Part shown: in pieces, positions 8,645 to 63,095 of the stretch
How the letters are laid out: each line of letters begins with the position of its first letter
How positions within the stretch are numbered: position 1 is the stretch's first letter
DNA from: a virus
Strand: one strand, 5' to 3'
Virus record (IMG/VR): IMGVR_UViG_3300045988_169928
Coordinates: 45,391-109,390 of that record
DNA length: 64,000 nt
Translations under genes and position numbers: made by a program
The notes under the pieces: generated by a model
The model's database searches: none
The model's input: only the letters and a program-made list of their open reading frames with translations
Told to the model about the DNA's origin: nothing

Positions 8645-8700
8645 TATTTCACCACCTATCAATCGTAATATACAAGAAAAGACCTACTTTTCGGTAGGTC

Positions 8701-38105: not shown

Positions 38106-38117
38106 GTGGTGAAAAGA

Positions 38118-39099: not shown

Positions 39100-40038
39100 A
39101 TGGTAAAACGTAAAACAGATAAACAATTTAAACAAGAGGTCTTTGACCTAGTAGGTAATGAATATACATTCTTAGATACTTATGTTAATACTATGACTAA
39201 GATAAGAGTTAAACATAATAAATGTGGGAATACCTACGAGGTAACACCTGATAATTTTCTACATGGCAATCGTTGTTCATATTGTGCAGGTAATGCTAGG
39301 AAAACAGATAAACAATTTAAACAAGAAGTATTTGACCTAGTAGGTAGTGAATACACATTTTTAGATAAATATGTTAATAGTCAAACCAAGTTAAGGGTTA
39401 AGCATAATAATTGTGGAAATGTTTACAGGGTTATCCCCAATAATTTTCTTAGGGGTAAGCGTTGTTCATATTGTTATGGTAATACTAAGAAAACAGATAA
39501 ACAATTTAAACAAGAAGTCTTTGACCTAGTAGGTAATGAGTATACATTCTTAGATCCTTATGTTAGTAACGAGACTAAGATAAGAGTTAAACATAATAAA
39601 TGTGGAAATGTATATAAGGTAATACCCACTAATTTTCTTAGGGGTAAGCGTTGTCCTTTTTGCACCGACACCCCTAAAGGTGAACTTATTATCATTAAAA
39701 TTTTAGATAAGCTAGGTATTAATTATGATTACCAGAAAACGTTTGATGATCTGAAAGATGATAGGCTTTTATCCTATGATTTCTATCTTCCAGATCAGAA
39801 TATCCTAATTGAGTACCAAGGACTACAACATTACCAACCAATTGATTACTTTGGTGGAGAAACTAAGTTTAAAATCCAACAGAAACATGACCAGATGAAG
39901 TTGAATTATGCTAAAAAACATGGATACAATTTAATCTTAGTTCCATACACAGTAGATACTTTACCTAAGATTATGAAGGATCTGGCCAATGGTATTAAGG
40001 CTTACTATGGAAATCCAGAGGTTGGTTTCTACAACTAA
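39100..40038 (+). CDS. freestanding endonuclease (putative homing endonuclease): 3 tandem zinc-ribbon repeats + C-terminal Vsr/DUF559-like PD-(D/E)xK nuclease domain
   Basis: Three ~63-aa repeats KTDKQFKQEVFDLVG.EYTFLD.YVN..TK.RVKHNKCGN.Y.V.P.NFL.G.RC.YC. C-terminal YDFYLPDQNILIEYQGLQHYQP (Vsr-like D...E.QG.QH pattern). Ends with NGIKAYYGNPEVGFYN copied from the upstream gene. Confidence 0.65.
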   Translation: MVKRKTDKQFKQEVFDLVGNEYTFLDTYVNTMTKIRVKHNKCGNTYEVTPDNFLHGNRCSYCAGNARKTDKQFKQEVFDLVGSEYTFLDKYVNSQTKLRVKHNNCGNVYRVIPNNFLRGKRCSYCYGNTKKTDKQFKQEVFDLVGNEYTFLDPYVSNETKIRVKHNKCGNVYKVIPTNFLRGKRCPFCTDTPKGELIIIKILDKLGINYDYQKTFDDLKDDRLLSYDFYLPDQNILIEYQGLQHYQPIDYFGGETKFKIQQKHDQMKLNYAKKHGYNLILVPYTVDTLPKIMKDLANGIKAYYGNPEVGFYN

Positions 40039-40118: not shown

Positions 40119-41984
40119 ATGGCAACACTAACTAAATCATCTGAAACGATGAAGTTAATTTATCCTAAGGAAACTAATACACGTCCACACGTTGCAACAC
40201 AATACAATGATAACGCATTAAATAATGTTGCAGGTTCTTCGTCCAAGAATATCTTCCTATTAGGATCAGCAACAGAAGGCAACCCAGATAATATCTATGA
40301 AGTTAAATCATCTTCCCAAGCTCGGGCCATTTTTGGGTCTGGTGATCTGGTTGAAGCAATGGAATTAATCTGGAACCCAACAGGTAGCTACTACCAAAAT
40401 GGTGGGACAATCTATGCACAACGGGTTGAAAATGCAACCCAAGCTCAATTGGTCAAGGGGCCTTTAACTTTTACTTCTACTGTTTATGGGGCAAGTGCTA
40501 ATAAGGTATCTGTTTCATTTAACAAGAACCCTGTATCTGGGGCTTATGATTTCCATGTTGATTATGAACCCAAGATGTATTCCCAAACGTACATGAGTAT
40601 TGGTAATCTCTTTACGATTGGTTATGACCCGACTTCTTCCAATGTAACGGGGGCTGGGTATAAGATTACAGGTGATCTTTCTGGTGCCCAAACCTTTGAG
40701 ATTGTACTGAATACGTCTGGTGCGTCACAACCAGTCCTAACGATGGATTTAACCAGTACCGCTTACAATAACATTGGTAAGGTTATTACAGCAATTAGTG
40801 CATTACCTGGTTTTACCGTTACCACATTAAAGAGCTGTGCTAACATTGATTCAACCACTTTGGACTTGACCAGTGGTAGTGGTTATCTTACTTTGGGGAC
40901 TGGTTCCGCACCAACCACGATTACCGACTTCTATGGTGACTTACTTTACACCACTCGCTATGATGATTATGTAGGTATTAGTGTTAATCGTTTAGGGGCA
41001 CCAACAGGTGTAAGTGCCGAGGCTAGTGGTAGTGACACGGTAGTTACTGCTAATGCACAAGAGATCACTTTTGTACCATTTGACGCTACTAATCTTTCTG
41101 GCGGTAGCGATGGTAATGTACCAGTTTCATGGGCTGATAAGTTCCAGAACGTTCATGAGGTCAATGCTTACTACATTGTTCCATTGACGAGTGAAGAAAA
41201 CATTCACGCCGAACTGAAAGAGTTCTTAAATGAAGAAGAAATTCTTGGCTACAACTACTTTGGTTGGGTTGGTGGTGGATTTAATGAAAGTATGAGCGCC
41301 GCCATCAACCGGCAAACGGCTTTAAAGTCTGATCGTATTGCCTTAGTAGCTAACTCTGGGTATTACAATAGTCTCAGTGGGAAAGTCGTTCACGCACCTG
41401 CTTATCTAATGGCCGCCTATGTAGCGGGGGTTGCTAGTTCCTTGGGTGTTGGCGATTCTGTTACCCACAAATATCTGGAATTAACTAGTCTTGACCAAAA
41501 TTTCAATGGTGATGAATTGAACGCCCTTGATGATAATGGGGTTATCGCAATTGAGAAGGTAGTTAACCGCAACCAATCTGGTGGCTACCGGATTGTCGAA
41601 GATGTTACTACTTACAACTCCACGAATGAACCAGTTAAGAACCTAGTTTCACTTCGGGAAATCACCGACTACTTATTTGATGATCTTCGTATCTATCTTG
41701 AAGATACCTTTATCGGTTCCAGCGTAGTAAATACGACAGGGAGTTTAATCGCTAGTTTTATTGAAGCATTCTTGAAGCAAAAGGTTAGTGAAGGTCTGTT
41801 AGCAAGTTATGATCAGCAAAGCATTACTTGTACCATTGATGGTAATAGCGCCTACGTTGCCTTTAGTGCCGCACCTGCACGTGAAGTACGGACAATTCTC
41901 GTAAGTGGTACTTACACTAACTTCACTAGCACAACTTCTCAAGACAATTCTAATTATACTACCAATAATGGTGTAACTGGTTAA
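40119..41984 (+). CDS. tail sheath-like protein
   Basis: 621 aa. N-terminal NIFLLGSATEGNPDNIYEVKSSSQARAIFGSGDLVEAMELIW fits the sheath N-terminal pattern (VG.A..G....P..V.S...F..FG). C-terminal region conserved-looking. From memory of the P2 FI / XkdK-type sheath family. Confidence 0.55.
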   Translation: MATLTKSSETMKLIYPKETNTRPHVATQYNDNALNNVAGSSSKNIFLLGSATEGNPDNIYEVKSSSQARAIFGSGDLVEAMELIWNPTGSYYQNGGTIYAQRVENATQAQLVKGPLTFTSTVYGASANKVSVSFNKNPVSGAYDFHVDYEPKMYSQTYMSIGNLFTIGYDPTSSNVTGAGYKITGDLSGAQTFEIVLNTSGASQPVLTMDLTSTAYNNIGKVITAISALPGFTVTTLKSCANIDSTTLDLTSGSGYLTLGTGSAPTTITDFYGDLLYTTRYDDYVGISVNRLGAPTGVSAEASGSDTVVTANAQEITFVPFDATNLSGGSDGNVPVSWADKFQNVHEVNAYYIVPLTSEENIHAELKEFLNEEEILGYNYFGWVGGGFNESMSAAINRQTALKSDRIALVANSGYYNSLSGKVVHAPAYLMAAYVAGVASSLGVGDSVTHKYLELTSLDQNFNGDELNALDDNGVIAIEKVVNRNQSGGYRIVEDVTTYNSTNEPVKNLVSLREITDYLFDDLRIYLEDTFIGSSVVNTTGSLIASFIEAFLKQKVSEGLLASYDQQSITCTIDGNSAYVAFSAAPAREVRTILVSGTYTNFTSTTSQDNSNYTTNNGVTG

Positions 41985-42274: not shown

Positions 42275-42310
42275 CTGTCTTGTATTGGTTTACAGGACAG
42301 TTTTTATTTT
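42275..42310 (+). terminator. rho-independent terminator (copy 2, 10-bp stem)
   Basis: CTGTCTTGTA-ttggtt-TACAGGACAG plus TTTTTATTTT. Confidence 0.65.
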
Positions 42311-42330
42311 AGATTTTTTAACAAAAAGTA

Positions 42331-42360
42331 TTGACACTATCTCTACTTGTGGTATTATAT
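42331..42360 (+). promoter_or_regulatory. early promoter, family A copy 1 (TTGACA-N16-TATTATAT) with conserved leader GTTGTCGAAAGGATAAG
   Basis: About 90% identical to copies at 61136 and 61496. The ORF-track ORF 42331.. begins inside this promoter (TTG of TTGACA) and is spurious at its 5' end. Confidence 0.6.
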
Positions 42361-42405
42361 AGTTGTCGAAAGGATAAGGACAAAAAGAAAAGGAGAATCA
42401 TAATT

Positions 42406-47766: not shown

Positions 47767-48768
47767 ATGGCTGATAGTAATAAGAGCAGTTCTAACTCAA
47801 ATAATAGTAGTAATGCTCAAGCAGAATCAAGTAAGTTAATGCTTGTACCGGAGGAGATTACCCCGGTTGCACACGCAACAGACAAAGAAACTTTAAGGTA
47901 TGCTCACAGTGTATCTTATGTGCCATCAGTAGTTATCTCGACCATTGAAGGGACATATCCTTTGGTTCCACGCAACTACTCACATTACTTGCCTAATGGC
48001 GCCAGAGAAGATTTTATCGATGACATTATCAGTCTACAAACACAGAACTTGATGAGTAATGATATTCCAACTTGTACTATCACTCTTGGAGATCAATACG
48101 ATTGGAGTTCTGTTTTGTCAGTTAATGATTTAATTCGTATCGATTTAGTTTTACCGGTTGGTAGTAGTGGTAATAATGATTCTCTTAAACCAAATGTTTC
48201 CCTTGCTAACAAGCGGTGGCAGTTAAAGACTAGCGGTAGTGGAGATAATACTACTTATTCGACTGAATTTGAAGATACAATTTCTTACTTTCAAGGGGAC
48301 GCTAATACCCAAGTTGACGCCATTAAGTACAACATTTACTATGGTCTGGTTTCGTCTTTGTCTAGAAACACTTCTTATAGTTCTAGCCAAACCACCTACA
48401 CCATTGTTGGTCAAGGTATGGCAAAGATTCTTTCTAGTATTCAGTTAGCAAGTTTTAGTGAATTATCAGCTAACCTAAGTGGTTATCAAATGTTACCCGA
48501 TGATGAAAAGACCGGGATTGCTTTTGGTAATCATACCAGTGCCAATATCATAAAACAGATTATCAATCGGTTTATTCTTCAAAACCAAAGTGGAAGTAAC
48601 ACTTATGATTTTGAAAGTGTTAATGATAATTCATATGGGATTGGTATTACAACTCGTTCTACCGCAGTTCAGGTTGATTGGTGGGGCGATCTAATGGGAA
48701 ATGCGATTAGCGAGGACACCTATTCAGCATATATGGATAGCATTGCCAATAATGGTGGCAATAGTTAG
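47767..48768 (+). CDS. hypothetical (possibly virion) protein with S/N-rich N-terminus
   Basis: MADSNKSSSNSNNSSNAQ, a leader similar to that of the next gene. Confidence 0.5.
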   Translation: MADSNKSSSNSNNSSNAQAESSKLMLVPEEITPVAHATDKETLRYAHSVSYVPSVVISTIEGTYPLVPRNYSHYLPNGAREDFIDDIISLQTQNLMSNDIPTCTITLGDQYDWSSVLSVNDLIRIDLVLPVGSSGNNDSLKPNVSLANKRWQLKTSGSGDNTTYSTEFEDTISYFQGDANTQVDAIKYNIYYGLVSSLSRNTSYSSSQTTYTIVGQGMAKILSSIQLASFSELSANLSGYQMLPDDEKTGIAFGNHTSANIIKQIINRFILQNQSGSNTYDFESVNDNSYGIGITTRSTAVQVDWWGDLMGNAISEDTYSAYMDSIANNGGNS

Positions 48769-48779
48769 GGGGTATAGTT

Positions 48780-50813
48780 ATGGCAGATAAAGATAAAGAT
48801 AGTAAATCAAGTTCTAGTTCTAATAACGCTAGTCTTTACGCTAACATGATGAATATCCCACTTGCGGTTGCCGATGGTGATGATATTCCAATGCAAAATC
48901 TGGTTGAGTTTGATATATGGGAAAACTTAGATGAAAGTTACCCTCCTGATACTGGGACTTCTAATCCATATACAAACTACAATGGTTCCATCTTACAAAT
49001 GATTAAAGATGTATCATCGCAACCATTTAACGAAATGTTCTGGACAAATGTACGTGGGATTCCAACTTTTGTATATCGACCAACCCCTTTTGACCCCGAG
49101 AATTGGAAGGGTCTAACTACTAACACCATTCCAACTGAATTAATTACAGATATTAGCATTGAAAATAGTGATAGTGAGCAATCAGCAGTCTTTAAGATTA
49201 CCCCTACCCAAAACCTTGGGGACACCACTTATTCAGGAGGAATCAATGCTAATCTTTATCCTTTGACTAACTTAGATCTAGTTCGCCGTTATGGCTATAA
49301 GCTCATGGAAGCTAATACAGATTATTTTAATGGTCAAACACTAGAATTAGATAGTCAGTCACATACGCCCGGAACCACCTATGCAGATAGTGAAGCGATG
49401 AAGGGTTACACGGATAAGACGGCTCAACTACACTATCCCCCATATACTAGCATTGTGGACGCTTTCTATCTTACTAGTGGGCGTAAAGGTTCTAATGCTA
49501 ACTTGTCAATTCCAAAAGAGTATGGTGGTAGTACCGCTTATAATGCGGTAATGAATGCGTTAAAGGCAACCAATTCTAATGTGGCGTTCTTTAATTCAAT
49601 TAGTAGTTATGGTATTACTAAGGAGCAGGCTAATTCATTGTGGCTAAGTAAAAACTCAATGAGTACCACTAAGTATCTTAGTATCATTGCCCCGAATTAT
49701 GTACCAACGACTACTAATTTAGCTAAAGACACTACTTACTTGAAGTCATATAAAGCCATGAAACAAAACCCTAAAAAGGCGGCCAGTGAATTAATTGGCT
49801 TATTGGGGTATTCGATTGGTAGTAAACAGGCTTATGAAATGGTTGAGTATGCAATTAATAATGGGGGAACCATTTCAGAAAGTGCCTACAACCAGATTAG
49901 AAGCCAATATAAGATCACTGATACCGAAGATGGGGTTAGTGGATCTCCAATGAATGGTAATGATTCCGTTAATTTCTTCTTTGCTAGGTATAGTGAGAAG
50001 CTGTTTAATTGGTATGCGGATAACGCTAAGTTTTATTCAGGAACCATAACCTTTGCTGGGCTTGAAAGTGAGCAAACCACTTTTAAAGAGAATAACTTTA
50101 TTGGTACTCGGATCTACTTTTATGATCGAGCAAATGGAACTTACTGGGAATTTTATTGTGAGGGTGAACAGTACAGCTTTGACTTTTCTAATGGTTTAAT
50201 GGTTACTCTTACCATTACTCGAGGGGTTCCTTTAGGTGATGATATTACCAATACTAATAAGCGTTTCTCGAATGAATGGTCTTTTTGGGGCACCTTTACC
50301 AACTTTGTTGGTGGGTACTTTGGGGAGCAGACCTTAGCGGCGGCGATTGAGAATGCCACACCAGATTCAGGTAGTTCTAGTTCATCTTCTGGTAGTGATG
50401 GTGATATTGTTTCCTTTGCTAAGAAGGTGGAGGGTAAGAATTGGTCTTACTCCCAAGCTAATCGAACTAATTTTGGGGATATTGGTAAACCAAAGGATAG
50501 TGGGTCAGCAGACTGTTCAAGTTTTGTATGGTATGTTTTAAAATCGTGTGGTTATCAAACAAGTGATAGTCCGTGGACAACTTTTTCAATGGAACCATAT
50601 CTCGACCAAATTAATAATGACAATTCTAAAGCTGGTGATGTGGTCATCAATAATGCTAATCCACACACTGGGATTCTTTTAGAAAAATGGAAAGGGCCTG
50701 ATACCAAAGTAATTAATTGTATCGATAGACACCCATCTGTGTGCGAGGGCGGATACCAAAGTATGTTTGGCAATAGCTCCCCATCAACAGGAATCTTCCG
50801 TGCTAAGAAGTAA
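48780..50813 (+). CDS. large protein with C-terminal NlpC/P60-type cysteine peptidase domain (candidate virion-associated peptidoglycan hydrolase)
   Basis: MADKDKDSKSSSSSNNAS leader. C-terminal GSADCSSFVWYVLKSCGY (NlpC/P60 catalytic Cys context) and later H (PHTGIL). Confidence 0.6.
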   Translation: MADKDKDSKSSSSSNNASLYANMMNIPLAVADGDDIPMQNLVEFDIWENLDESYPPDTGTSNPYTNYNGSILQMIKDVSSQPFNEMFWTNVRGIPTFVYRPTPFDPENWKGLTTNTIPTELITDISIENSDSEQSAVFKITPTQNLGDTTYSGGINANLYPLTNLDLVRRYGYKLMEANTDYFNGQTLELDSQSHTPGTTYADSEAMKGYTDKTAQLHYPPYTSIVDAFYLTSGRKGSNANLSIPKEYGGSTAYNAVMNALKATNSNVAFFNSISSYGITKEQANSLWLSKNSMSTTKYLSIIAPNYVPTTTNLAKDTTYLKSYKAMKQNPKKAASELIGLLGYSIGSKQAYEMVEYAINNGGTISESAYNQIRSQYKITDTEDGVSGSPMNGNDSVNFFFARYSEKLFNWYADNAKFYSGTITFAGLESEQTTFKENNFIGTRIYFYDRANGTYWEFYCEGEQYSFDFSNGLMVTLTITRGVPLGDDITNTNKRFSNEWSFWGTFTNFVGGYFGEQTLAAAIENATPDSGSSSSSSGSDGDIVSFAKKVEGKNWSYSQANRTNFGDIGKPKDSGSADCSSFVWYVLKSCGYQTSDSPWTTFSMEPYLDQINNDNSKAGDVVINNANPHTGILLEKWKGPDTKVINCIDRHPSVCEGGYQSMFGNSSPSTGIFRAKK

Positions 50814-52300: not shown

Positions 52301-53065
52301 ATGAAGTTTGAACTTAAAGGATATGTTTTTGAATTTAAGCCCGTTAAACGTAGTGAGATTATTGATTTAATGATTAATTACCATTATCTACACCGGAAGG
52401 TTGCTACTAAGTATGCTTATGGTTTGTTTGCAGATAATGAGTTAAAGGGAATGATTACCTACACAGCTCCACGATTAAGTCTTGCTCGTTCTATTAGTGA
52501 AGAGGCAAATCAAGATAACACCTTAGAACTTTCCCGATTGTATATCAAGGACGAGATTTCTCAAAATGTTCCTAACATTACTTCCCGCTTTGTGTCTTGG
52601 ACTTTACGTGAACTCAAGAAGCAAGGTAATTGGTTTATTATTTCGTTTGCTGATTCTAGTATGGGCCATGTTGGGAGTATCTACCAAGCAACCAACTTTC
52701 TTTATTGTGGGACTACTAAAAGTGGTATGTTATGCTATAATGGGCCTTTCAAACAAGGTGGCACATGGGTTAAGGGGGTTCATTATCGGTTTTTACTTAT
52801 TCGGAGTATCAAGCATAGGTATATCAAATTTGTTGGTGATCGTCGCTTTCAAAAGGGGGCTAAAAAAGACCTCAAGCTGGATATTGTCCCTCACCCTCAT
52901 GGACTTGGCGCCCATTATGAAGTTGGAGATGTTGAAACTCGCTTCATTAAGGATCGAAAAACAGGCCGTATCTATACCGAAGCACAGTTACTTAGATCTT
53001 TCCCGGATTACGACTGGGATAATCAAGACTGGGGAATAGAGGATATTAATACACCTAATAAGTAG
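52301..53065 (+). CDS. hypothetical protein (weak GNAT/Mom-like resemblance, speculative)
   Basis: 254 aa. ...FADSSMGHVGSIYQATNFLYCG is faintly reminiscent of acyl-CoA-binding motif A of GNAT-fold proteins. Confidence 0.5.
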   Translation: MKFELKGYVFEFKPVKRSEIIDLMINYHYLHRKVATKYAYGLFADNELKGMITYTAPRLSLARSISEEANQDNTLELSRLYIKDEISQNVPNITSRFVSWTLRELKKQGNWFIISFADSSMGHVGSIYQATNFLYCGTTKSGMLCYNGPFKQGGTWVKGVHYRFLLIRSIKHRYIKFVGDRRFQKGAKKDLKLDIVPHPHGLGAHYEVGDVETRFIKDRKTGRIYTEAQLLRSFPDYDWDNQDWGIEDINTPNK

Positions 53066-53076
53066 GGGGTGATATA

Positions 53077-54363
53077 ATGACAAAACGTAAAACAGATGAG
53101 GAGTTCCAGCAAGAAATTTACAGTCTAGTAGGCGATGAATACACATTTCTAGATAAATATGTTAATGCAAGGACAAAACTAAGGGTAAAACATAACGAGT
53201 GTAATTTTGTATATTCCGTTTCTCCCCACAACTTTTTAACAGGCAAACGTTGTCCCAATTGTTTTAAGACACCCAAGAAAAGTGATATTCAGTTTCAGCA
53301 TGAAGTTCATACTTTAGTGGGTGATGAATACACATTTTTAGATCCTTATGTTAACAATAAAACAAAGCTAAGGGTAAAGCATAATGTATGTGGAAATGTC
53401 TATAAAGTTAGGGCTTCATCTTTTTTAGATGGTAGTCGTTGTCCATATTGCGCAGGACTGGTTAAGAAAACAGATAAACAGTTCAAACAAGAAATTTACA
53501 ATTTAGTAAATGATGAGTACACATTCCTAGATTCTTATGTTAATACTAATACCAAGTTAAGGGTTAAACACAATAAATGTGGGAATGCCTATGAGGTTAC
53601 ACCCTCTAAGTTTTTATCTGGTGAGCGCTGTCCTTACTGTGCAGGACTTGTTAAGAAAACAGATACCCAGTTCAAACATGAAGTTAACATTTTGGTGGGC
53701 GATGAGTACACATTCCTAGATAGATATGTTAATGCTTATACAAAAATTAGGGTTAAACACAACAAATGTAATTTTATATATTCTGTTGCTCCTACTAATT
53801 TCCTTAGGGGTAGTCGCTGTCCTCATTGCTATCTAGTTAATAAATCAAAGTCGGATAATCTCTTTAAACAGGAGGTTTCTAGCCTTGTTGGCGATGAATA
53901 CACAATATTAGATACTTATACTAATGCGGAATCCAAGATTAGGTTAAGACATAATAAATGTGGAAATGTTTATAAAACTCGACCTCGTACTTTTCTTGAA
54001 GGGTATCGTTGCCCATATTGTAATAGTCCTAAGGGGGAAACTGTTATTACTAAGCTGTTAGATACTTTTAGTATTGATTATGAGTATCAAAAAACCTTTG
54101 AGGATCTAAAAGATAAGTCATATTTGTCTTATGATTTCTATATTCCAGACCAGAACATCTTAATTGAATATCAAGGGATTCAACATTATCAACCTGTAGA
54201 CCTTTTTGGTGGAGATGATAGATTTATTAATCAACAAAAGCATGACCAGATGAAGTTAGACTATGCTAAAGATCATGGTTATAATTTAATTGCTGTTCCC
54301 TACACAGAAGATACTTTCTCTAAGATTAAAAAGTATCTGACTAAGCATGGACTAAAGAAGTAG
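53077..54363 (+). CDS. freestanding endonuclease paralogue: 5 zinc-ribbon repeats + Vsr/DUF559-like nuclease domain
   Basis: Five repeats of K.D.QF..E...LVGDEYTFLD.YVN..TK.RVKHN.C...Y.V....FL.G.RCP.C. C-terminal YDFYIPDQNILIEYQGIQHYQP. Confidence 0.65.
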   Translation: MTKRKTDEEFQQEIYSLVGDEYTFLDKYVNARTKLRVKHNECNFVYSVSPHNFLTGKRCPNCFKTPKKSDIQFQHEVHTLVGDEYTFLDPYVNNKTKLRVKHNVCGNVYKVRASSFLDGSRCPYCAGLVKKTDKQFKQEIYNLVNDEYTFLDSYVNTNTKLRVKHNKCGNAYEVTPSKFLSGERCPYCAGLVKKTDTQFKHEVNILVGDEYTFLDRYVNAYTKIRVKHNKCNFIYSVAPTNFLRGSRCPHCYLVNKSKSDNLFKQEVSSLVGDEYTILDTYTNAESKIRLRHNKCGNVYKTRPRTFLEGYRCPYCNSPKGETVITKLLDTFSIDYEYQKTFEDLKDKSYLSYDFYIPDQNILIEYQGIQHYQPVDLFGGDDRFINQQKHDQMKLDYAKDHGYNLIAVPYTEDTFSKIKKYLTKHGLKK

Positions 54364-54430: not shown

Positions 54431-54868
54431 TTGGCGACAGTAAGCAATCAATCTGTGAACAGTGCAAACAGAATTTACATTATGGCACAGAACCATCTTG
54501 TGGCAAGGGCACAATCATTAAGTGCACAACGTTCTTTTGGTACAGAGGGTGTGTATGAAATCGGTTCCATCATGCCACAAGAACACGTTTATCTCAAGTA
54601 CACGGGTAGTGTTACGCTTGAACGGTTCCGCATGGTTTCAAGTAACTTGGCAAGTGCCCAAATGGGGGCGATCGCCGCATTAGGTGAAGATATTTTAAAC
54701 AAGGATATTATCACCATTAACGTTATGGATAGTGTAACTAAGAACCTAGTTGAGAGCTTCTATGGTTGTTCGGCTTCCAGTTACTCCACTGCGTACCGTA
54801 GCAATCAAATCGTGACTGAATCAATAGAATTTTTGTACCTTAGCTCCGGGACAACTGCTGTAAGCTAG
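54431..54868 (+). CDS. tail tube-like (major tail) protein
   Basis: 145 aa. The pattern ...SLSAQRSFGTEGVYEIGS...YLKYTGSVTLERFRMVSS resembles XkdM-type tube proteins (from memory). Followed by terminator AGAGATAGTGTAATAGCTATCTCTTTTTTT. Confidence 0.4.
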   Translation: MATVSNQSVNSANRIYIMAQNHLVARAQSLSAQRSFGTEGVYEIGSIMPQEHVYLKYTGSVTLERFRMVSSNLASAQMGAIAALGEDILNKDIITINVMDSVTKNLVESFYGCSASSYSTAYRSNQIVTESIEFLYLSSGTTAVS

Positions 54869-54958
54869 GTTAACAGTTACTTTATATAAAGAGATAGTGT
54901 AATAGCTATCTCTTTTTTTGTTATACAAAAAGGCCACCCGGTTTAGGGGTGGTCATTT

Positions 54959-57900
54959 TTAATGAGCAAAGTAATTTAACTGGCTTTGCCTAGTTTGTTG
55001 TTGTTCAAACTGATTAAGCATTTCCTTAACCTTGTTTGCTACGGTTTGGGCTAAGTTGTCTGGGTCGTCTGTCCCTCCTTGAATAGTAAGATTAATGTTG
55101 TAGGTAGGGTTAATGGTTGTGTTTTGGTTGCCCCCAACTTCGCTTGGGCTAACCAACTTACGTCCAAAGACCCCCGCTAAATCGTTTAGTGCTGTTAGAC
55201 CCGCACCAGCGTGACTTGTGTTTAGTGGGATAAATGCTTCTGTACCAGCTTCACCAAAGAGATCAGAGTTATTAACTAAGGTCGGTTGGCTACTAATGAA
55301 CCCATTACCACTGGCAAAGGAACGAATCCCACCATTAGCGTATTGACCTTTGAACGAGTTCATACCGGCCTCGTACGCACTTAGCCCAGCAGTAAAGTAG
55401 CTATGATTTTTAAGGGCGGTTGCATATTGGTCAACTGACTTAATGCTTGAATCAATGCCATCATTCTTTAGAATACTAGCAAAATTCTTAGCATAGTCAT
55501 CTAAACTGTTAAACTTAGCATAGTAATCGCCCTCGGGAGAAGCAGAACCCCTAGTAGCTCCAGATTGTCCTACATATTTGATACCAGACAGGTTATTAGA
55601 CCCATCATTGGCTAATTTAGAGGTCATGCCACCCGTTTCATGCATAATTTGGGCAAAGACAAGGCTAGGATCGACCCCTAATTCTTTACCAACCTTCTTA
55701 GCAACGGATTTAGCGGCTTCAACCCCTTTACCACTAGCTTTTTCTGAATCATCTGAGGTATTACCCTTAGTATCACCATTAAGGGAAATACTTTTAGCGG
55801 TTTCAACAAGGGTTTTGGCCTTGTCTAACATCTTGTTGTAGGAGCGAAGGATCTTCCAGTCGTCTTTATCATGAAGTTTTGACTTTTTACTGGTGGATTT
55901 CTTGTGATTTCCACTGAATTCGTCTTTGATCCAGTGAGCACCATCACCAATAAGACCACCAATTTTACCACCGGCCCAGCCACCAATAATGCTTCCACCA
56001 ATTGTCCCTGCTGGACCTATGAATGGGTCTAGTAAACTACCGAGAACGGCGCCCCCAGCACTCCCAGCAGTGGTACCCGCCGCTTTTCCAAGTCCTTCAA
56101 ATTGGGCTTTAGACCCTTTTTTGGTGTGCGTAAGAGTATTAATAGTGTCATAAGCCCCGAAGGCAAGGTTAGCAATCCCAGCTTTCCTTACTAGGCCACC
56201 TGCGCTCCTTAGTAAACCAGTACGTTCACCAGATCTTAGAAGGGTAGACCCAGTGGATTTAGCTAGACTAGTCCCTTTGCGGAGTAGACCAGTAAACTTA
56301 CCACCCTTACGAATGTTTCGAGCGGCGTTAACAATGGATCGTCCACCATTTTTAAGAGATCGACCACCATTAGCCCATGTTTCCTTGGTGAACAGGTCCT
56401 TAGTCGCCCCACGGAACCCTCCGTGTCTAAGGACAAAGCCTGAAACTAGACCAGAACCAACCCCTTGAACAAGGCTTCCTCCCACGGCAGAGGCGACACT
56501 CATACCAACCCCACCAAAACCGCCAAAACTACCCCCAACGGTCTTATAAATTTTGGCTAAAGCGCTTCGGAAGGAATCTAGGCTTTCACTAGCCTTAGTA
56601 GCCGAGTTAGCAAGGGCCGCATTTGACTTTTGAATCGATGAAGTACCTGATTCTGAATAGGATTTATCGTTCTTTTTGGCTTGTGAGCCGTCATTTAGGT
56701 ACTTTTTAAGGGTAGATTTATCTAATTTACCCTTAGAATTGGCGTCTAATAGCTTCTCCGCGGCGTCCATCGAGATATTAGGGTTTTGACTGCTTATCCG
56801 CCAAGCGGCTACTTTGGTATTCCCTTGGGCCATGTCCATATAATTGTTTAAAACCCGGCGCATGGACGCAGGATTCTTGTTCATGTCCTGCATATCTTGC
56901 ATTAATTGGGCTTGACCCTGTAAACCAGAGTATTTAGTCCCAGTTCCTCGGGCAAACATGGTTCGGGCTTGCAAACTATTATAGTCAGAAAGGGTGTGAG
57001 TAATCTGGAGAATGTTATTAGCCCCAGTAGTACCTTGGAATTGGCTTCCTAAAGAGGAAAGTGAACCTTGTAAGCCGGCAATCTGTTGTAAATCTTTATA
57101 ACTAGCTCCATATTGGGTAGCATTGTTATATAGTTCTGTTAAACCTTGCTGTTGTTGACTAGACTTGGCCGTCATACCGCTAGAGGTAATCTCATTAGTG
57201 ATCTGATTACCTAACCTAGACATTTGGCTACCAGAAAGCCCACTGGCGTTCCCAGCCGATTGTTCAAGGGATTGGGTGGTTTCGCTGTCAGAACCGGTTA
57301 TACGGGCTTGACGTGCCCATGAGGTAGCCGCCTTATTGTAGTTACCTGTATTTCCCGTGCTACCTGAATAAGCGCTAACGAATCCAGACATCTCTGCACC
57401 AGAATAACCATATTTATACCCTGAATTAGAGATCGTGTCCATAACGTGGTTATCAGCATGATAACCACCAATACCATAGGCGACACCTTTAATGTTATCA
57501 AAGGCCGTTAGACGGGCGTTACTCCCTTGGCTAACTAAGGAACCAGACGAACTCATCGCCGCAGTAAGACCAGAACGAGCAAGGTAACGAGATTGGTCGG
57601 CTAGGCTACCCTTTTTAGGCCCAACGGTGTAGCTATTATCTGGTTTATTAACCTCTGTGCTAGTCTGTTTAATTGCTTGTTCATTTCGTCCAAGGGTAGA
57701 ACTAAGTTGATTTAACTTTTGGCTAACCTTTTCGAGTTGCTTAACGTATTCGTCAGCTTCTCTAGCGGCATTGACGGCTTCTCGGCTAGCTCCCGGAACA
57801 CTAGCTACCTTTTTGGCGTTAGCATAATCTTCCCTAGCACTTGTTAATTTACCTGCTAAGTCAGTTCGTTGCTTTTTTAAAATATCAGAGTAATTAGAAA

Positions 57901-58474
57901 AACGTTCTTGGTTGTAGCTGGCGCTTTGTTTATATTCCTGATAACGGTTGTGTGAAATATATCCTGAACGTTTACCAACCTCAAAGTTATTATAAGTTTT
58001 CCGGTTGCTACTAATTAAGTTATTAATATCAGATCGGAGTTTATTGTAACTTGCGTTAGCTTTATTAACATCATCTGTTTGACTGTCGTTAAAACGGCGG
58101 AAAGCCGAACTACTGGTAGTATTAGTAGTCTGGTTACTAATAATGTTTTTATAACCATCACTATCACTAATTCTATTGATAGCATTGGTTAATTCGGTTA
58201 GCTTACTACTTAAATCACTTTCGGTTTCGGTGTCCCCAGTTTTTTGGACACTCGCTAACATTTGTTGAAGTTTGGTTTTGTCTGAATAAAGGTCACTAAG
58301 TCCACCTTGGGCAGTGGCAACCTGTTTATTACTTAGTGTGTTGTTATTGTTTACTCGGGCGTTAGAGATACGTTCAATGCGTTTTTCTAGATCATCAATA
58401 TCTTTAGTGACGTCTTGAATAGCGTTCTTTGCCGCCTGATTATCAACCTTGAGGTTAATGTTTTCCTCAACCAT
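54959..58474 (-). CDS. second, orphan tape-measure-like protein with internal lytic transglycosylase (SLT-like) domain
   Basis: ATG at 58474 with RBS AAGGTGGTG (the track ORF extends spuriously to 58687). Shares with the first tape measure protein the segments VNNNNT.SNK and VSQGSNARLT.F.NI.G. Gly-rich TM region. VFAQIMHETGGMTS (SLT catalytic Glu context). Own terminator AAAAATGACCACCCCTAAACCGGGTGGCCTTTTTG on the minus strand at 54925-54958. Confidence 0.7.
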   Translation of the reverse strand: MVEENINLKVDNQAAKNAIQDVTKDIDDLEKRIERISNARVNNNNTLSNKQVATAQGGLSDLYSDKTKLQQMLASVQKTGDTETESDLSSKLTELTNAINRISDSDGYKNIISNQTTNTTSSSAFRRFNDSQTDDVNKANASYNKLRSDINNLISSNRKTYNNFEVGKRSGYISHNRYQEYKQSASYNQERFSNYSDILKKQRTDLAGKLTSAREDYANAKKVASVPGASREAVNAAREADEYVKQLEKVSQKLNQLSSTLGRNEQAIKQTSTEVNKPDNSYTVGPKKGSLADQSRYLARSGLTAAMSSSGSLVSQGSNARLTAFDNIKGVAYGIGGYHADNHVMDTISNSGYKYGYSGAEMSGFVSAYSGSTGNTGNYNKAATSWARQARITGSDSETTQSLEQSAGNASGLSGSQMSRLGNQITNEITSSGMTAKSSQQQQGLTELYNNATQYGASYKDLQQIAGLQGSLSSLGSQFQGTTGANNILQITHTLSDYNSLQARTMFARGTGTKYSGLQGQAQLMQDMQDMNKNPASMRRVLNNYMDMAQGNTKVAAWRISSQNPNISMDAAEKLLDANSKGKLDKSTLKKYLNDGSQAKKNDKSYSESGTSSIQKSNAALANSATKASESLDSFRSALAKIYKTVGGSFGGFGGVGMSVASAVGGSLVQGVGSGLVSGFVLRHGGFRGATKDLFTKETWANGGRSLKNGGRSIVNAARNIRKGGKFTGLLRKGTSLAKSTGSTLLRSGERTGLLRSAGGLVRKAGIANLAFGAYDTINTLTHTKKGSKAQFEGLGKAAGTTAGSAGGAVLGSLLDPFIGPAGTIGGSIIGGWAGGKIGGLIGDGAHWIKDEFSGNHKKSTSKKSKLHDKDDWKILRSYNKMLDKAKTLVETAKSISLNGDTKGNTSDDSEKASGKGVEAAKSVAKKVGKELGVDPSLVFAQIMHETGGMTSKLANDGSNNLSGIKYVGQSGATRGSASPEGDYYAKFNSLDDYAKNFASILKNDGIDSSIKSVDQYATALKNHSYFTAGLSAYEAGMNSFKGQYANGGIRSFASGNGFISSQPTLVNNSDLFGEAGTEAFIPLNTSHAGAGLTALNDLAGVFGRKLVSPSEVGGNQNTTINPTYNINLTIQGGTDDPDNLAQTVANKVKEMLNQFEQQQTRQSQLNYFAH

Positions 58475-58595
58475 AGTTCCACCACCTTGATTATAATTAT
58501 CTTCTTGCTTAATATAATAGTGATTAGGGGTTGCAATAACATATTTGAGATGGTAGTATAATAAACATAGAAAAGGAAAGGGGGGGGGCAAAAAC

Positions 58596-58745
58596 ATGAG
58601 TAGTGCTGGAATCAAGGCAGATGTTAAGGCTTTTCTTAAATCTAAGCAAGTCAAGACCATCGTGCTTCCTAGTGGTAAGGAAGTCAAGTTGCAAAACGCA
58701 AAGACAAGTGATCTAATTTCATACGCAAGTAAGTTGGGATATTAA
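58596..58745 (+). CDS. small basic protein (50 aa) behind a G9 tract / RBS
   Basis: AAAGGGGGGGGGCAAAAACATG. MSSAGIKADVKAFLKSKQVKTIVLPSGKEVKLQNAKTSDLISYASKLGY. Not in the ORF track. Confidence 0.35.
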   Translation: MSSAGIKADVKAFLKSKQVKTIVLPSGKEVKLQNAKTSDLISYASKLGY

Positions 58746-58785: not shown

Positions 58786-59526
58786 TTGGATAAAGCTACA
58801 AAGCAAAACTATTTCATTTGGTTGTTCAATCAATTGAAAGGTTGGCCTATGCAGAATTATATGTTGTTTTTCTTTGCTTTTGGATTTCAGTTAGCATTAT
58901 TGATTGGTAGTCCAATTAATTCAGTAACATTGATTACGTTTATTGGTACCTTGTTGGGTACCCTATGTGTATTGGCAATTAATGCTACTAAAGCAATTAA
59001 TGGTTGGTTAGGGTTAATTTCAGCCACCTGTTTTGTTTATGCTGGGTGGTCAGCGAAGAACTATCTGTCAATTTTTGAACAAATTGCCTATGTCGTGACA
59101 TTGGACTTGCCTGTTATCTTTGCAATTCGTAGTTGGAATGACGATACCAAGAATCACTTGCGCCGTTTCGGCTCAAAACAATGGTTAGTCGCTGTTATTG
59201 GTACATTGATTGTATATGTAGTAAGTGGTTATCTGATTGGTCAGTTTACTAATGACCCACGTCCATGGATTGACGCTATTAGTTTTGCAATTAGTTTGAC
59301 TGCCGGAATTATGTGCTTTATGCGTTACAATAACCAATACTACTGGTGGTTAGCTTCTGGTATCTTCCAGTTAATTCTATGGGCTGTTACATTTGCACAA
59401 GGTGACGCAACCTTGGCGATGGCAGTTAATAGCTTAATCTATGTTATTAATGACATTCTGGCTTTCGCAGTTTCTCCATGGTTTAACCACGGTCGGCGTC
59501 AAGCCGGTTTATCTGAAATGAAGTAA
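58786..59526 (+). CDS. PnuC-like nicotinamide riboside transporter (multi-TM membrane protein)
   Basis: TTG start with RBS AAAAGGTGG. 246 aa with ~7 hydrophobic segments. Trp/Asn-rich loops. Size and topology fit PnuC. From memory; no signature verified. Confidence 0.45.
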   Translation: MDKATKQNYFIWLFNQLKGWPMQNYMLFFFAFGFQLALLIGSPINSVTLITFIGTLLGTLCVLAINATKAINGWLGLISATCFVYAGWSAKNYLSIFEQIAYVVTLDLPVIFAIRSWNDDTKNHLRRFGSKQWLVAVIGTLIVYVVSGYLIGQFTNDPRPWIDAISFAISLTAGIMCFMRYNNQYYWWLASGIFQLILWAVTFAQGDATLAMAVNSLIYVINDILAFAVSPWFNHGRRQAGLSEMK

Positions 59527-59636: not shown

Positions 59637-60809
59637 TTGAGAAGAAAAACAAATGATCAGTTTCAACAGGAAGTTTACGATCTTGTGAGAGATGAATATA
59701 TATTCTTAGATACTTATGTTAATAAACGTACAAAAATTAAAGTTAAACATAACAAATGCGGTCATATCTATAAGGTAACTCCTGGTGACTTTCTTTGTGG
59801 TAGGCGCTGTCCTTATTGTTTTGGTAATTTAAAAAAGACAGACGCTCAATTCAAACATGAAGTTTACACTTTGGTAGGTGATGAATATGCTTTCTTAGAA
59901 CCATATGTTAATAATAAGACTAAAATTAAGGTTAGGCATAATAAATGTGGCAATATCTATGAAGTAAAGCCTGATGGTTTCTTGCGTGGTAATCGTTGCC
60001 CATACTGTGCAAGTACAGCTATAAAAACAAATGAGCAGTTTCAACAGGAGGTTTATGATCTCGTTGGAGATGAGTATTTATTTTTAGAATCCTATCAAAA
60101 AGCACTTACAAAAATTAAGGTAAAGCATAATAAATGCGGTAGTATCTATAAAGTCAAGCCTAGTGATTTTCTACATGGCGAACGTTGCCCATATTGTAAT
60201 GGTAATGCTAAGAAAACAGACGTCCAGTTTAAAAAGGAAGTTTATAATCTAGTTGGTGATGATTATAAATTCCTAGATGTCTATGTTAATAATGTTGCTA
60301 AACTTAGGGTAAAACACAATAAATGTGGAAACATTTACGAAGTTAGACCTAGTGATTTTCTCCGTGGCACCCGTTGTCCTTACTGTAATACCCCTAAAGG
60401 TGAGGTTATCATTAATAAAATTCTAAAGTCATTAGGGACCAAGTATGAGTATCAGAAAACGTTTGATGATCTTGTAGATAAGTCCTATCTTTCTTATGAT
60501 TTCTATATCCCCAGTCAATCCATCTTAATTGAATATCAAGGGATTCAACATTACCAGCCTACTGATTATTTTGGTGGAGAAGCTACCTTTAAGAGACAGC
60601 AAAAACATGATAAGATGAAGCTAGACTATGCTAAGTCTCATGGTTATAAATTAATTACTGTACCATATACGGAAGATACTTTCTCTAAGATTAAGGGGTA
60701 TTTGATTAAGCATGGGTTAGCTGATGAAAATACTTCGGTAGATACAGATACACTCCATCGACTGTTTGACGAGAATAAAGAAGTGATGGATTGGCTAAAG
60801 GACAAGTGA
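59637..60809 (+). CDS. freestanding endonuclease paralogue: 4 zinc-ribbon repeats + Vsr/DUF559-like nuclease domain
   Basis: TTG start with RBS AAGGTGA. Four repeats. C-terminal YDFYIPSQSILIEYQGIQHYQP. Extra acidic tail. Confidence 0.65.
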   Translation: MRRKTNDQFQQEVYDLVRDEYIFLDTYVNKRTKIKVKHNKCGHIYKVTPGDFLCGRRCPYCFGNLKKTDAQFKHEVYTLVGDEYAFLEPYVNNKTKIKVRHNKCGNIYEVKPDGFLRGNRCPYCASTAIKTNEQFQQEVYDLVGDEYLFLESYQKALTKIKVKHNKCGSIYKVKPSDFLHGERCPYCNGNAKKTDVQFKKEVYNLVGDDYKFLDVYVNNVAKLRVKHNKCGNIYEVRPSDFLRGTRCPYCNTPKGEVIINKILKSLGTKYEYQKTFDDLVDKSYLSYDFYIPSQSILIEYQGIQHYQPTDYFGGEATFKRQQKHDKMKLDYAKSHGYKLITVPYTEDTFSKIKGYLIKHGLADENTSVDTDTLHRLFDENKEVMDWLKDK

Positions 60810-61084: not shown

Positions 61085-61114
61085 GGCCTAGTAATTACTA
61101 GGTCTTTTTATTTT
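61085..61114 (+). terminator. terminator family B copy 1 (GGCCTAGTAATTACTAGGTC + TTTTTATTTT)
   Basis: Near-identical copy at 61446-61475. Each is followed by a family A promoter (61136-61165 and 61496-61525). Confidence 0.65.
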
Positions 61115-61135
61115 AGGTTTTTTCTATAAAAACTG

Positions 61136-61165
61136 TTGACATCATCTCTACTTGTGTTATTATAT
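61136..61165 (+). promoter_or_regulatory. early promoter family A copy 2 (TTGACA-N16-TATTATAT + GTTGTCGAAAGGATAAG leader)
   Basis: Near-identical to 42331-42395. Confidence 0.6.
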
Positions 61166-61209
61166 AGTTGTCGAAAGGATAAGAACAAAAGAAAAGGAGG
61201 AATATAATT

Positions 61210-61428: not shown

Positions 61429-61495
61429 TGGAATCATAATGAGAAGGTCTAGTAATTACTAGGTCTTTTTATTTTAGTTATTTTTATAAAAACTA

Positions 61496-61525
61496 TTGAC
61501 ATTATCTCTGCCTGTGTTATTATAT
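61496..61525 (+). promoter_or_regulatory. early promoter family A copy 3
   Basis: TTGACATTATCTCTGCCTGTGTTATTATAT. Confidence 0.55.
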
Positions 61526-61559
61526 AGATGTTAAAGGAATAGAATAAAAGGAGATTATT

Positions 61560-62084
61560 ATGACTAAGAAATACAAGCTAACTCATCACACTAAGGAAGT
61601 AGATGGTCATACCCTTCACCGAATTAAGGCTCTAAAGTCCTTTGGTGATGTAACGAAAGGAGATCTAGGCGGTTGGGTTGAAAGTTACCGTAATCTATCT
61701 CAATCAGATTATGCTTGGGTCTATGACAAAGCTAAAGTTTATGGTGACGCCCGAGTTTTTGATAATGCAAAAGTTAATGATCATGCCCGAGTTTACGGTG
61801 ACGCTTGGGTTTACAAAAACGCTTGGGTCTATGGTCACGCTCGAGTTAGTGGTGCCGCAGGTGTGTCAGGAAATGCTTGGGTTCATGGTCATGCTAAAGT
61901 TTATGATAATGCTAAAGTTTGGGGTAATGTCCTAGTTTATGACCATGCTCATGTTTGCGGGAACGCTATGATTTACGATAATGATATGGTTTATGGTCGT
62001 ACTAAGGTTTATAATCATACTCAAGTATATGGTAAAGATTGGGTTTGTTCTCATATCCAACCTTGGGATATTGATAATAAATAA
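61560..62084 (+). CDS. hexapeptide-repeat (beta-helix-like) protein, short paralogue
   Basis: Conserved ~55-aa N-domain MTKKYKLTHHTKEVDGHTLHRIKALKSFGDVTKGDLGGW, then ~18 hexapeptides [NHD]A.V.[GDN]. Confidence 0.6.
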   Translation: MTKKYKLTHHTKEVDGHTLHRIKALKSFGDVTKGDLGGWVESYRNLSQSDYAWVYDKAKVYGDARVFDNAKVNDHARVYGDAWVYKNAWVYGHARVSGAAGVSGNAWVHGHAKVYDNAKVWGNVLVYDHAHVCGNAMIYDNDMVYGRTKVYNHTQVYGKDWVCSHIQPWDIDNK

Positions 62085-62096
62085 AGGAGGTTTCTT

Positions 62097-63095
62097 ATGA
62101 CTAAGAAGTATGAATTAACAGATAATACTAAGGAAATATTGGGTCACACCCTCCATCAAATTAAGGCTTTAAAAGCGTTTGGTGATGTAAAGAAGGGTGA
62201 TCTAGGGGGTTGGATTGAAGATTACTCTAACCTCTCCCAATCCGGTAATGCTTGGGTCTATGACAATGCTAAAGTTTATAAGAATGCTGTAGTTTATGGT
62301 CAGGCCCAGATCCGTGGTAATGCATGGGTCTATAATCACACTAAGGTTTTAGATAATGCTAAAGTTTGTGGTGAGGCTTGTATCTATGATCATGCTAGAG
62401 TATTAGATAATGCCCAAGTTGGTGGTAATGCTTGGGTTTATAATAATGCTTATGTTGTAGGCAACGCCAAAGTTGCAGGTAAGGCCCAGATTTATGGTAA
62501 TGCTTGTGTCTATGATAATGCGATAGTACGTGGCCATGCCGAGATTTATGACCATGCTTCGGTTTATGGCAACGCTTGGGTTTTTGATGATACCAAAGTT
62601 TGGGGTTGTGCGTCTATTACAGGTAAGACTAAAGTATATGGGGACGCTCGAATCTATGGCAGTGCTAAGGTTCATGGTAACGCCATCGTATGTGGCTATG
62701 CTCACGTTTGTGGTAATACCCATGTCTATGATAATGCTAAAGTCTATGGTGATAGTATCTTGCAAGGACGAATTAACATTCGGGAAGATGATGATATTAA
62801 GGACAAGTATTCTTATCTAATCTTTAATAACACTTGGTCATCAGGGCGGCAGTTTGTTTACGTCCTATCTAATCAGCGATGGCACGTTGGTTGCTTTAAT
62901 GGAACAGGGGAAGAACTAATTAAGAAAGCATACAAGGATTCGGAATTATCGGGAAAGATGTACGAGATGTATGTTCATTTTGCTGAACAAGCGGTTAAGA
63001 CCCAAGCTAAGATCCAACAGCAACAACAATCACACAAGAAATTCCCTCTTTGGTTAGATTCATATCCAAGTTGGCGAGACTGGTTAGGACTATAG
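62097..63095 (+). CDS. hexapeptide-repeat (beta-helix-like) protein, long paralogue with C-terminal globular domain
   Basis: Same N-domain, ~29 hexapeptides (NAWVYD NAKVYK NAVVYG ...), then a ~100-aa C-terminal domain. Confidence 0.6.
   Translation: MTKKYELTDNTKEILGHTLHQIKALKAFGDVKKGDLGGWIEDYSNLSQSGNAWVYDNAKVYKNAVVYGQAQIRGNAWVYNHTKVLDNAKVCGEACIYDHARVLDNAQVGGNAWVYNNAYVVGNAKVAGKAQIYGNACVYDNAIVRGHAEIYDHASVYGNAWVFDDTKVWGCASITGKTKVYGDARIYGSAKVHGNAIVCGYAHVCGNTHVYDNAKVYGDSILQGRINIREDDDIKDKYSYLIFNNTWSSGRQFVYVLSNQRWHVGCFNGTGEELIKKAYKDSELSGKMYEMYVHFAEQAVKTQAKIQQQQQSHKKFPLWLDSYPSWRDWLGL

Follow-up and report, generated by a model that had tools for sequence, protein, structure and literature searches.

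Within the window, by which we mean the whole stretch of 64,000 nucleotides analysed here (IMG/VR record IMGVR_UViG_3300045988_169928, positions 45,391 to 109,390), two separate genes encode tape-measure-like proteins. The subject of this study is the second of them, TMP-b (or TMP2), at positions 54959-58474; the first, TMP-a (or TMP1), is encoded about 46 kb away. The minus-strand open reading frame (ORF) of TMP-b spans 54959-58687, and its credible start is the ATG at 58474, which is preceded by a ribosome-binding site (RBS) and gives a protein of 1,171 residues. Both loci match Lactobacillus phage LfeInf (NC_029058), with nucleotide identities of 92.6% at the TMP-b locus and 96.8% at the other, and the LfeInf orthologue of TMP-b is gp008 (92% amino acid identity). 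LfeInf belongs to the Herelleviridae, genus Hopescreekvirus, has a genome of 106 kb and infects L. fermentum, and the window is the reverse complement of about the first 62 kb of that genome. Judged from these matches, the window phage is a close relative of LfeInf and thus a predicted phage of Limosilactobacillus fermentum. The TMP-b gene and its parts are as follows, L006 being one of the related loci used for comparison.

54959-58474, minus strand: TMP-b, a 1,171-residue tape-measure or tail-associated-lysin paralogue (ORF, phrog_1047 match, orthology to LfeInf gp008)
58479-58488, minus strand: RBS AAGGTGGTGG, 4 nt before the TMP-b ATG, conserved in LfeInf and L006
56537-58474, minus strand: N-terminal region, residues 1-646, almost all α-helical (AlphaFold2), the part of the protein that aligns with TMP-a
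55868-56536, minus strand: Gly-rich, partly hydrophobic region, residues 647-869 (23% Gly; composition and hydropathy), disordered in the AlphaFold2 model
55394-55705, minus strand: N-acetylglucosaminidase domain of the GH73 type at residues 924-1027 (Pfam PF01832; 45.5 bits, cut-off 30.2, E 1.5e-11)
54962-55354, minus strand: C-terminal module, residues 1041-1171, with YANGG, GEAGTEAFIPLN, LAGVFGRK, NPTYNINLTIQGGTDD and a terminal NYFAH

The TMP-a locus holds a chaperone pair and, between TMP-a and the gene for a 1,493-residue protein, a thioredoxin-like gene for 114 residues (5051-5395, minus strand).

5408-8644, minus strand: TMP-a, the paralogue of 1,078 residues that follows the chaperone pair and has an SLT-like lytic-transglycosylase domain
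8701-9889, minus strand: tail assembly chaperone pair, 9245-9889 and an overlapping frame 8701-9315 (phrog_15939, phrog_4988, phrog_1316), joined by a frameshift in the LfeInf annotation (joined coding sequence)

PHROG profile searches placed both TMP-b (E 2.7e-185, residues 3-866) and TMP-a (E 4.5e-159) in phrog_1047, the Herelleviridae 'tail associated lysin' or tape-measure family, and tblastn with TMP-b matched annotated tape measure protein or tail-lysin genes of Lactobacillus and Bacillus Herelleviridae. BLASTP aligned TMP-b with TMP-a at 28% identity over 724 residues (E 3e-47), covering TMP-b residues 1-681. The blocks VNNNNT(L/I)SNK and VSQGSNARLT.F.NI.G, which an earlier note on this DNA had quoted as common to the two, are present in both proteins. 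On these alignments we judge TMP-b to be a true, diverged and full-length homologue of TMP-a; the ORF, the BLASTP match and the family assignment bear out the note's second, diverged paralogue standing as a single-gene unit far from the first.

The AlphaFold2 model of TMP-b has a mean pLDDT of 51.9 and only its outline is usable. It shows helices over residues 13-646, with pLDDT values of 70-90 at about 130-280 and 420-600, and hence the tape-measure-like helical regions on which the earlier note had made its reading depend are there. The best 19-residue hydropathy windows, at about residues 664-682 (1.42) and 809-827 (1.09), mark putative membrane-inserting segments. Direct searches of TMP-a and TMP-b sequences against the PDB gave no matches; profile searches gave marginal ones, namely 9ki1_g, the solved structure of a tape measure protein, with the family profile (E 0.012), and the FlgJ glucosaminidase (E 0.19).

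The lytic domains of the two proteins differ. AlphaFold2 folds residues 917-1042 of TMP-b, the GH73 region, at a pLDDT of 75-86, and the candidate catalytic residue Glu946 (in IMHETGG) is invariant in 14 orthologues; this domain is a predicted N-acetylglucosaminidase. TMP-a itself scores 14.9 bits against Pfam SLT (PF01464), below the cut-off of 21.3, and its orthologues in L004 and L013 reach 24.3 bits (above the cut-off) and 21.0 bits. Residues E892, S893, G916, L917 and Q919 of TMP-a, which make up Glu-Ser and GLxQ motifs, are invariant in seven orthologues. The SLT-like motif once thought to be shared by both proteins is therefore confined to TMP-a.

TMP-b is the sole minus-strand gene between plus-strand neighbours. 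In the window, as in LfeInf, it does not sit directly downstream of the chaperone pair, being placed between a tail-tube gene and a gene for a PnuC-like nicotinamide-riboside transporter. The latter (58786-59526, plus strand) is divergent from TMP-b, and the former is convergent with it.

54431-54868, plus strand: tail-tube protein gene, 145 residues (phrog_985, E 2.8e-59)

A search of the window tail-tube protein against a local copy of Pfam gave no match; its identification is based on the PHROG match, on PF26461 (Phi812_tail_tube) in the orthologues of L006 (92% identical) and L008 (70% identical), and on synteny, the window protein being 53% identical to the product of the gene after the sheath gene in Semele. 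Around these genes the structural genes are spread over several blocks on both strands. Below 10.4 kb, on the minus strand, the chaperones are followed by TMP-a, the 1,493-residue protein and the baseplate genes. A tail terminator group occupies 10.5-13.2 kb of the plus strand, and genes for head, packaging and lysis take up 13.3-28.7 kb of the minus strand. Also part of the plus-strand block with the TMP-b neighbours are a phrog_772 tail gene (38106-39038), the sheath gene (40119-41984) and a tail lysin encoded in two pieces, mingled with genes for DNA polymerase, helicase, metallophosphatase and homing endonucleases. Tail genes are thus generally scattered in this genome. Several statements of the earlier note need amending in this light. 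TMP-b is on the opposite strand relative to its neighbours but not relative to TMP-a, since both are minus-strand genes; the surrounding plus-strand genes are not only early and replication genes but include those for the tail tube, the sheath and the tail lysin; and TMP-b is not cut off from every tail gene, as it abuts the tail-tube gene.

The tail lysin of this block ('tail protein with lysin activity', with a weak NlpC/P60 match) consists of two adjacent plus-strand ORFs, 47767-48768 and 48780-50813. The two-ORF form is also found in LfeInf, and in relatives the lysin is a single protein of 1,020-1,244 residues.

Might TMP-b not be a working virion gene at all, and instead be the decaying remnant of a module exchange, an error of assembly or a soluble enzyme for lysis? 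Its isolation from the chaperone and TMP-a operon would fit this, as would the name 'lysin' given to gp008 in the GenBank record of LfeInf (KP054477; 'tail associated lysin' in RefSeq). The ratio of nonsynonymous to synonymous substitution rates (dN/dS) points the same way in so far as that of TMP-b is the highest among the genes compared: 0.24 against LfeInf and 0.15 against the 78%-identical copy of L006, with 0.12 for TMP-a and 0.06-0.10 for eight other genes. Values of 0.15-0.24 nevertheless indicate that TMP-b is under purifying selection. Furthermore, its catalytic Glu is invariant and its C-terminus unchanged; over the last 130 residues dN against LfeInf is 0 despite a dS of 0.23. The gene is intact and full-length in more than 20 clusters at 75-97% identity, and a protein search returned about 50 further clusters of the same length at 34-47% identity, mostly with the same domain and many of them on contigs of 90-150 kb. 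We rejected a pseudogene or relic, which the earlier note had considered, on the basis of these dN/dS values and intact orthologues.

Misassembly fares no better. The isolate LfeInf has the orphan layout (PnuC-like gene, small gene, TMP-b, convergent tube gene), and so do four metagenome assemblies made independently. An assembly chimera was rejected because the same junctions recur there at 70-95% identity, and the earlier view that this is no assembly duplication is upheld. Finally, a canonical holin and an endolysin with LysM repeats are encoded separately at 22857-24326 and nearby, so that TMP-b is not needed for lysis and an endolysin role is unlikely; the whole tape-measure architecture is retained as well. 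We find it scarcely credible that TMP-b is a gene without a place in the virion.

We then compared the genomic contexts of the TMP-b clusters, adding further loci taken from IMG/VR and metagenomes. About 12 independent contigs have the order chaperone A, chaperone B, TMP-a, TMP-b and tail lysin, and tandem pairs of this kind occur in the uncultured relatives L002, L004, L007, L008, L013-L015, L017-L020, L036 and L037. The first gene of the pair is the orthologue of TMP-a (30-35% identity) and the second that of TMP-b (37-49% identity, the same domains and the same length class). Only 15-25 nt, holding nothing but an RBS, separate the two, which are apparently co-transcribed with the chaperones; in the window, by contrast, 46 kb lie between them and a separate TATATTA motif precedes each. 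IMG/VR queries with the a family and with the b family return the same contigs, and hence the two copies co-occur strictly. The orphan layout was found only in the LfeInf-like group, where it persists down to 70-78% protein identity. Given that the orthologues are adjacent in about 12 related contigs, the isolation of TMP-b appears to be a secondary rearrangement in the LfeInf (Hopescreekvirus) lineage.

Some loci of the tandem-type relatives show interrupted genes. The tail-tube gene is apparently split in L004 (652-798 and 1023-1316), L007, L014 and L020, either into pieces of 48 and 97 residues or with the 97-residue piece alone, and an HNH or Mom-like gene adjoins. An Rfam intron search in these split tube genes gave nothing at the gathering threshold. 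In L015, L018, L019 and L020 (IMG/VR, metagenomes 3300043781 and 3300043812) two or three ORFs stand in place of an intact TMP-a or TMP-b, and in L020 the tail lysin is broken too; these may be sequencing indels, not pseudogenes.

A search for repeats flanking TMP-b that might explain the inversion found none at the gene borders. Two of three paralogous HNH homing-endonuclease genes bracket the segment with the tube, TMP-b and PnuC-like genes. In addition, a 38-nt inverted repeat (8647-8684 and 38077-38114, 92% complementary), which is a TATATTA promoter-plus-RBS cassette, precedes both TMP-a and the tail gene at 38106-39038; it is possible that this cassette is the substrate or the trace of the rearrangements that scattered the tail module. 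The bracketing HNH paralogues and the shared cassette together hint at recombination between repeated cassettes. The three HNH genes lie on the plus strand (39100-40038, 53077-54363 and 59637-60809), are 66-81% identical at the DNA level in repeated blocks, and each has internal 189-nt repeats; a Mom-like gene (52301-53065) precedes one of them.

In a neighbour-joining tree with Poisson distances, the a copies and the b copies each form a clade with 100% bootstrap support, from which the window lineage branches off first in either case (96% and 99%). It follows that the pair predates the split of the lineages and has co-diverged since.

In the textbook view there is one tape-measure protein, acting as one homotrimer and encoded just after its chaperones. 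A single tape measure was indeed found in four lineages, namely Semele, 3-521, LP65 and contig L016, and in Semele, 3-521 and LP65 the gene order is sheath, tube, two chaperones, one tape measure and tail lysin. These phages differ from the window clade, which has two tape measures with different lytic domains, and their tape measures lie downstream of the chaperones whereas TMP-b in the window is a single-gene unit convergent with the tube gene. In other respects the single-copy proteins resemble TMP-b. Those of the Herelleviridae (LP65 orf98, Semele gp022, 3-521 gp112 and the trimeric tape measure of Staphylococcus phage 812) belong to the same phrog_1047 family; the single copies have a helical N-terminal region, a central stretch rich in Gly and, within the protein, a glycosidase domain (SLT in LP65, GH73 in the other three, Semele, 3-521 and L016); and they carry the C-terminal GEAGxEAxxPL and terminal Y(Y/F) motifs. 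The SLT-type domain of copy a is like that of LP65.

The C-terminal motifs GEAGTEAxIPLN, LAGxFGK and NPxYNINL are present in TMP-b and all b copies and, more or less degenerate, in all four single copies, with 3-521 and LP65 departing at several positions. Alignment shows that this module is absent from TMP-a and all other a copies, the terminal Y(Y/F) excepted. Over the C-terminal 300 residues the b copies are 36.8% identical to the single-copy proteins and the a copies 21.0%; over the N-terminal 640 residues a and b are 27.5% identical to each other and either is about 25% identical to the single copies. Because the GH73 domain and the C-terminal module are kept in TMP-b and missing from TMP-a, the orphan appears by its C-terminal module to be the more canonical tape measure, closer to the single-copy Herelleviridae proteins. 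TMP-a, in the chaperone operon, would then be the remodelled copy, its C-terminal third replaced or diverged. The earlier note had taken the orphan for the odd copy, and the comparison with Semele, 3-521 and L016 reverses this.

A wall-degrading motif embedded in a tape measure is also known from mycobacteriophage TM4, a siphophage, which we liken to the present case by description and not by sequence: TM4 has one protein with one motif, a non-contractile tail and no paralogue pair. The peptidoglycan-hydrolase motif of the TM4 tape measure is reported to promote efficient infection of stationary-phase cells (PMC1796659).

The signals around the two genes suggest how they may be expressed.

58510-58517, minus strand: TTATATTA, a candidate late-promoter (-10-like) element, 43 nt upstream of the TMP-b ATG, conserved in LfeInf and L006
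8666-8673, minus strand: GTATATTA, the motif before TMP-a, after a hairpin at about 8681-8700 and part of the 38-nt cassette
54932-54954, no strand assigned: a bidirectional intrinsic-terminator-like hairpin, G+C-rich with T-runs on both strands, common to the convergent TMP-b and tail-tube genes

A terminator scan of both strands showed that the last hairpin directly follows the TMP-b stop codon. No sigma-70-type promoter was found upstream of TMP-b. Of the promoter and terminator that the earlier note ascribed to this gene, the latter has a candidate in the hairpin, and in place of a conventional promoter there is a TATATTA motif. The motif occurs 20 times in the window, 18 of them in non-coding DNA against 1.8 expected (non-coding DNA being 9% of the sequence), a ten-fold enrichment. 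Eleven genes of the structural and late blocks have the motif 12-91 nt ahead of them, including those for the tube, major head, protease, terminator-group, TMP-a, 1,493-residue and TMP-b proteins (non-coding sites are, for example, 10455, 38088, 54376, 58517, 28209, 16814, 15167, 8673, 5049 and 487). In tandem-type phages it is found after the terminator behind TMP-b and before the tail-lysin gene, and thus in distant relatives also. Presumed early genes carry promoters of the TTGACA-17-TATAAT type instead. Read as a late promoter, the motif would therefore make TMP-b co-regulated with the virion genes.

Three copies of a cassette of about 98 nt (42301-42398, 61106-61203 and 61466-61563), each with a terminator hairpin, a strong TTGACA...TATTATA promoter and an RBS, precede small plus-strand genes elsewhere in the window; this is probably an early promoter module.

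From these data we consider it rather probable that TMP-b is a late-expressed tape measure and lysin of the virion, the half of an old and conserved paralogue pair that a rearrangement has separated; it may occupy the tail together with TMP-a. In this model the clade consists of Herelleviridae-like myophages including LfeInf, most of whose members would keep chaperones, TMP-a, TMP-b and tail lysin as one unit. In the Hopescreekvirus lineage rearrangements would have broken the tail module and left TMP-b alone and convergent with the tail-tube gene, with a late-type promoter element of its own and a shared terminator. TMP-b would be made late and, with the aid of chaperones whose genes are 46 kb away, enter the tail-tube lumen as an elongated protein of mostly helical structure. 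In phage 812, which also belongs to the Herelleviridae, the tape measure forms a trimer inside the tube and touches the DNA end, and its expulsion has been proposed to release the genome (PMC12886913); by homology to that protein TMP-b is expected to be loaded into the tube and ejected on contraction. Upon contraction of the sheath it would be expelled, its GH73 glucosaminidase would cleave peptidoglycan at the GlcNAc-MurNAc bond, and its hydrophobic segments rich in Gly may help to form a membrane passage for the DNA. TMP-a would act likewise, its lytic-transglycosylase-type domain cutting the other glycosidic bond. The ejected wall-degrading protein that the earlier note had offered as one option is compatible with this model, except that the description would apply to both copies.

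A virion of this kind would bring two enzymes that cleave glycan strands, each of them blocked by a different modification of the wall. Lactobacilli whose MurNAc is O-acetylated resist lysozyme (a muramidase-type enzyme), and in these bacteria O-acetylation or N-deacetylation of GlcNAc inhibits glucosaminidases (PMC4155827). That different modifications block different enzymes is thus a plausible reason to keep both lytic domains, and the benefit of two enzymes is one that we infer from this.

Within this model the most likely arrangement is that both proteins are in the same tail, either joined in a mixed trimer or in trimers that form a mixture but belong to one length class. Co-assembly is favoured by the strict co-occurrence of the pair and its parallel divergence, and by an N-terminal span that is equal in both copies at about 600 residues (the NNN motif and the KAS anchor are about 584-616 residues apart in all a and b copies). 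Both copies have, moreover, the NN.T.SNK block at the N-terminus and the Y(Y/F) motif at the extreme C-terminus. In the window lineage both copies stop one residue after the conserved Y(Y/F)(S/A) motif, whereas in other lineages most copies have a tail of the NETSxQF type, the exception being TMP-a of L013 and L017, which ends in NEVG. The joint loss of this tail in the window lineage hints at a shared partner. A more specific proposal, which we put forward tentatively and regard as doubtful, is that the ruler is a hetero-oligomer of TMP-a and TMP-b in one trimer, each subunit bringing a different glycosidase, and that the LfeInf lineage unlinked the two genes without loss of function.

Several observations weigh against this interpretation. 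The monophyly of a and b with respect to the single-copy proteins has a bootstrap of only 65%, and the second tape measure may have been captured from another phage instead of arising by duplication in place. Nor was concerted evolution seen, overall identity between a and b within a genome being no higher than between genomes. The dN/dS of TMP-b is 2-3 times that of the other structural genes. The TATATTA motif is a candidate late-promoter element of the phage group as judged by position only. Since TMP-a is without the GEAGTEAxIPLN and NPxYNINL module common to TMP-b and the single copies, a and b may dock differently in the baseplate. The total lengths differ as well (1,078 and 1,171 residues in the window), and they do not co-vary across phages, b minus a ranging from -18 to +140.

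Some of these differences would suit a division of labour, in which one copy, most likely TMP-b, is the length ruler and the other an ejected accessory lysin or membrane-channel cargo in the tube or hub. TMP-a has lost the C-terminal module and has a changed lytic domain, and its length varies between 1,078 and 1,254 residues while that of TMP-b is near constant (1,236-1,250 residues) outside the LfeInf lineage. Both copies, however, keep the N-terminal span, the NN.T.SNK block and the terminal Y(Y/F) just described, and it is TMP-a, not the presumed ruler, that holds the classical place directly after the chaperones. We think such a division unlikely.

Another possibility is that the two proteins are alternative rulers, each tail containing a homotrimer of either TMP-a or TMP-b. 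Two kinds of virion in one burst, each with its own wall-cutting enzyme and possibly with slightly different tail lengths, would then hedge against wall modifications. The lytic domains of the two proteins attack different bonds, and the window lineage has a separate promoter element and terminator, both putative, for either gene, which would make the ratio tunable. In most relatives, on the other hand, the spacer is minimal and both genes are apparently co-transcribed. The tail length of LfeInf is reported as a single class of 202 +/- 4 nm (PMC4558781), and the 93-residue difference would amount to about 14 nm if all helical; the second tail-length variant of the earlier note is weakly disfavoured by this single length. 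We hold alternative rulers to be quite improbable, and return to a tail shared by TMP-a and TMP-b as our preferred reading.

Two further features of the window lie apart from the tape-measure genes. A full-length ROOL RNA (37503-38048, plus strand; 124.6 bits to Rfam RF03087, gathering score 99.1) lies in the gap directly upstream of the phrog_772 tail gene at 38106. Near the genome end, the plus-strand genes 61560-62084 and 62097-63095 contain 18-nt (six-residue) periodic repeats, of which 16 copies were detected at 61689-62750, which suggests hexapeptide-repeat or β-helix proteins.

A search of the literature for paired or second tape measure genes found no report, the results being papers on the two chaperone products or unrelated uses of the words, and the paper on LfeInf and EcoInf contains no discussion of tape measures or lysins (PMC4558781). 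The gene is already public under vague names, and no description of the pair as a clade-wide feature, or of its split in Hopescreekvirus, was found in the searchable literature. The database names 'lysin', 'tail associated lysin' and 'tape measure protein' are inconsistent and have hidden the paralogy.

Collectively, our data show a clade that has retained two diverged tape measures with different wall-cutting domains over a long evolutionary span, one lineage of which has separated them. If both proteins are in the tail, the building of the trimer, the choice of clients by the chaperones and the docking of the C-terminus in the baseplate would have to be revisited, and a hetero-oligomer, if true, would be the first documented two-component tape measure. 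If only one is the ruler, the pair would instead show a tape measure turned into ejected cargo. The LfeInf lineage would further show that a tape measure can be separated from its chaperones and its partner, under its own late promoter, with its function kept. The phages of this clade would also be a natural case of two glycan-cleaving enzymes directed against thick, modified Gram-positive walls, which would be relevant to the engineering of phages and tail-derived lysins against lactobacilli that contaminate fermentations.

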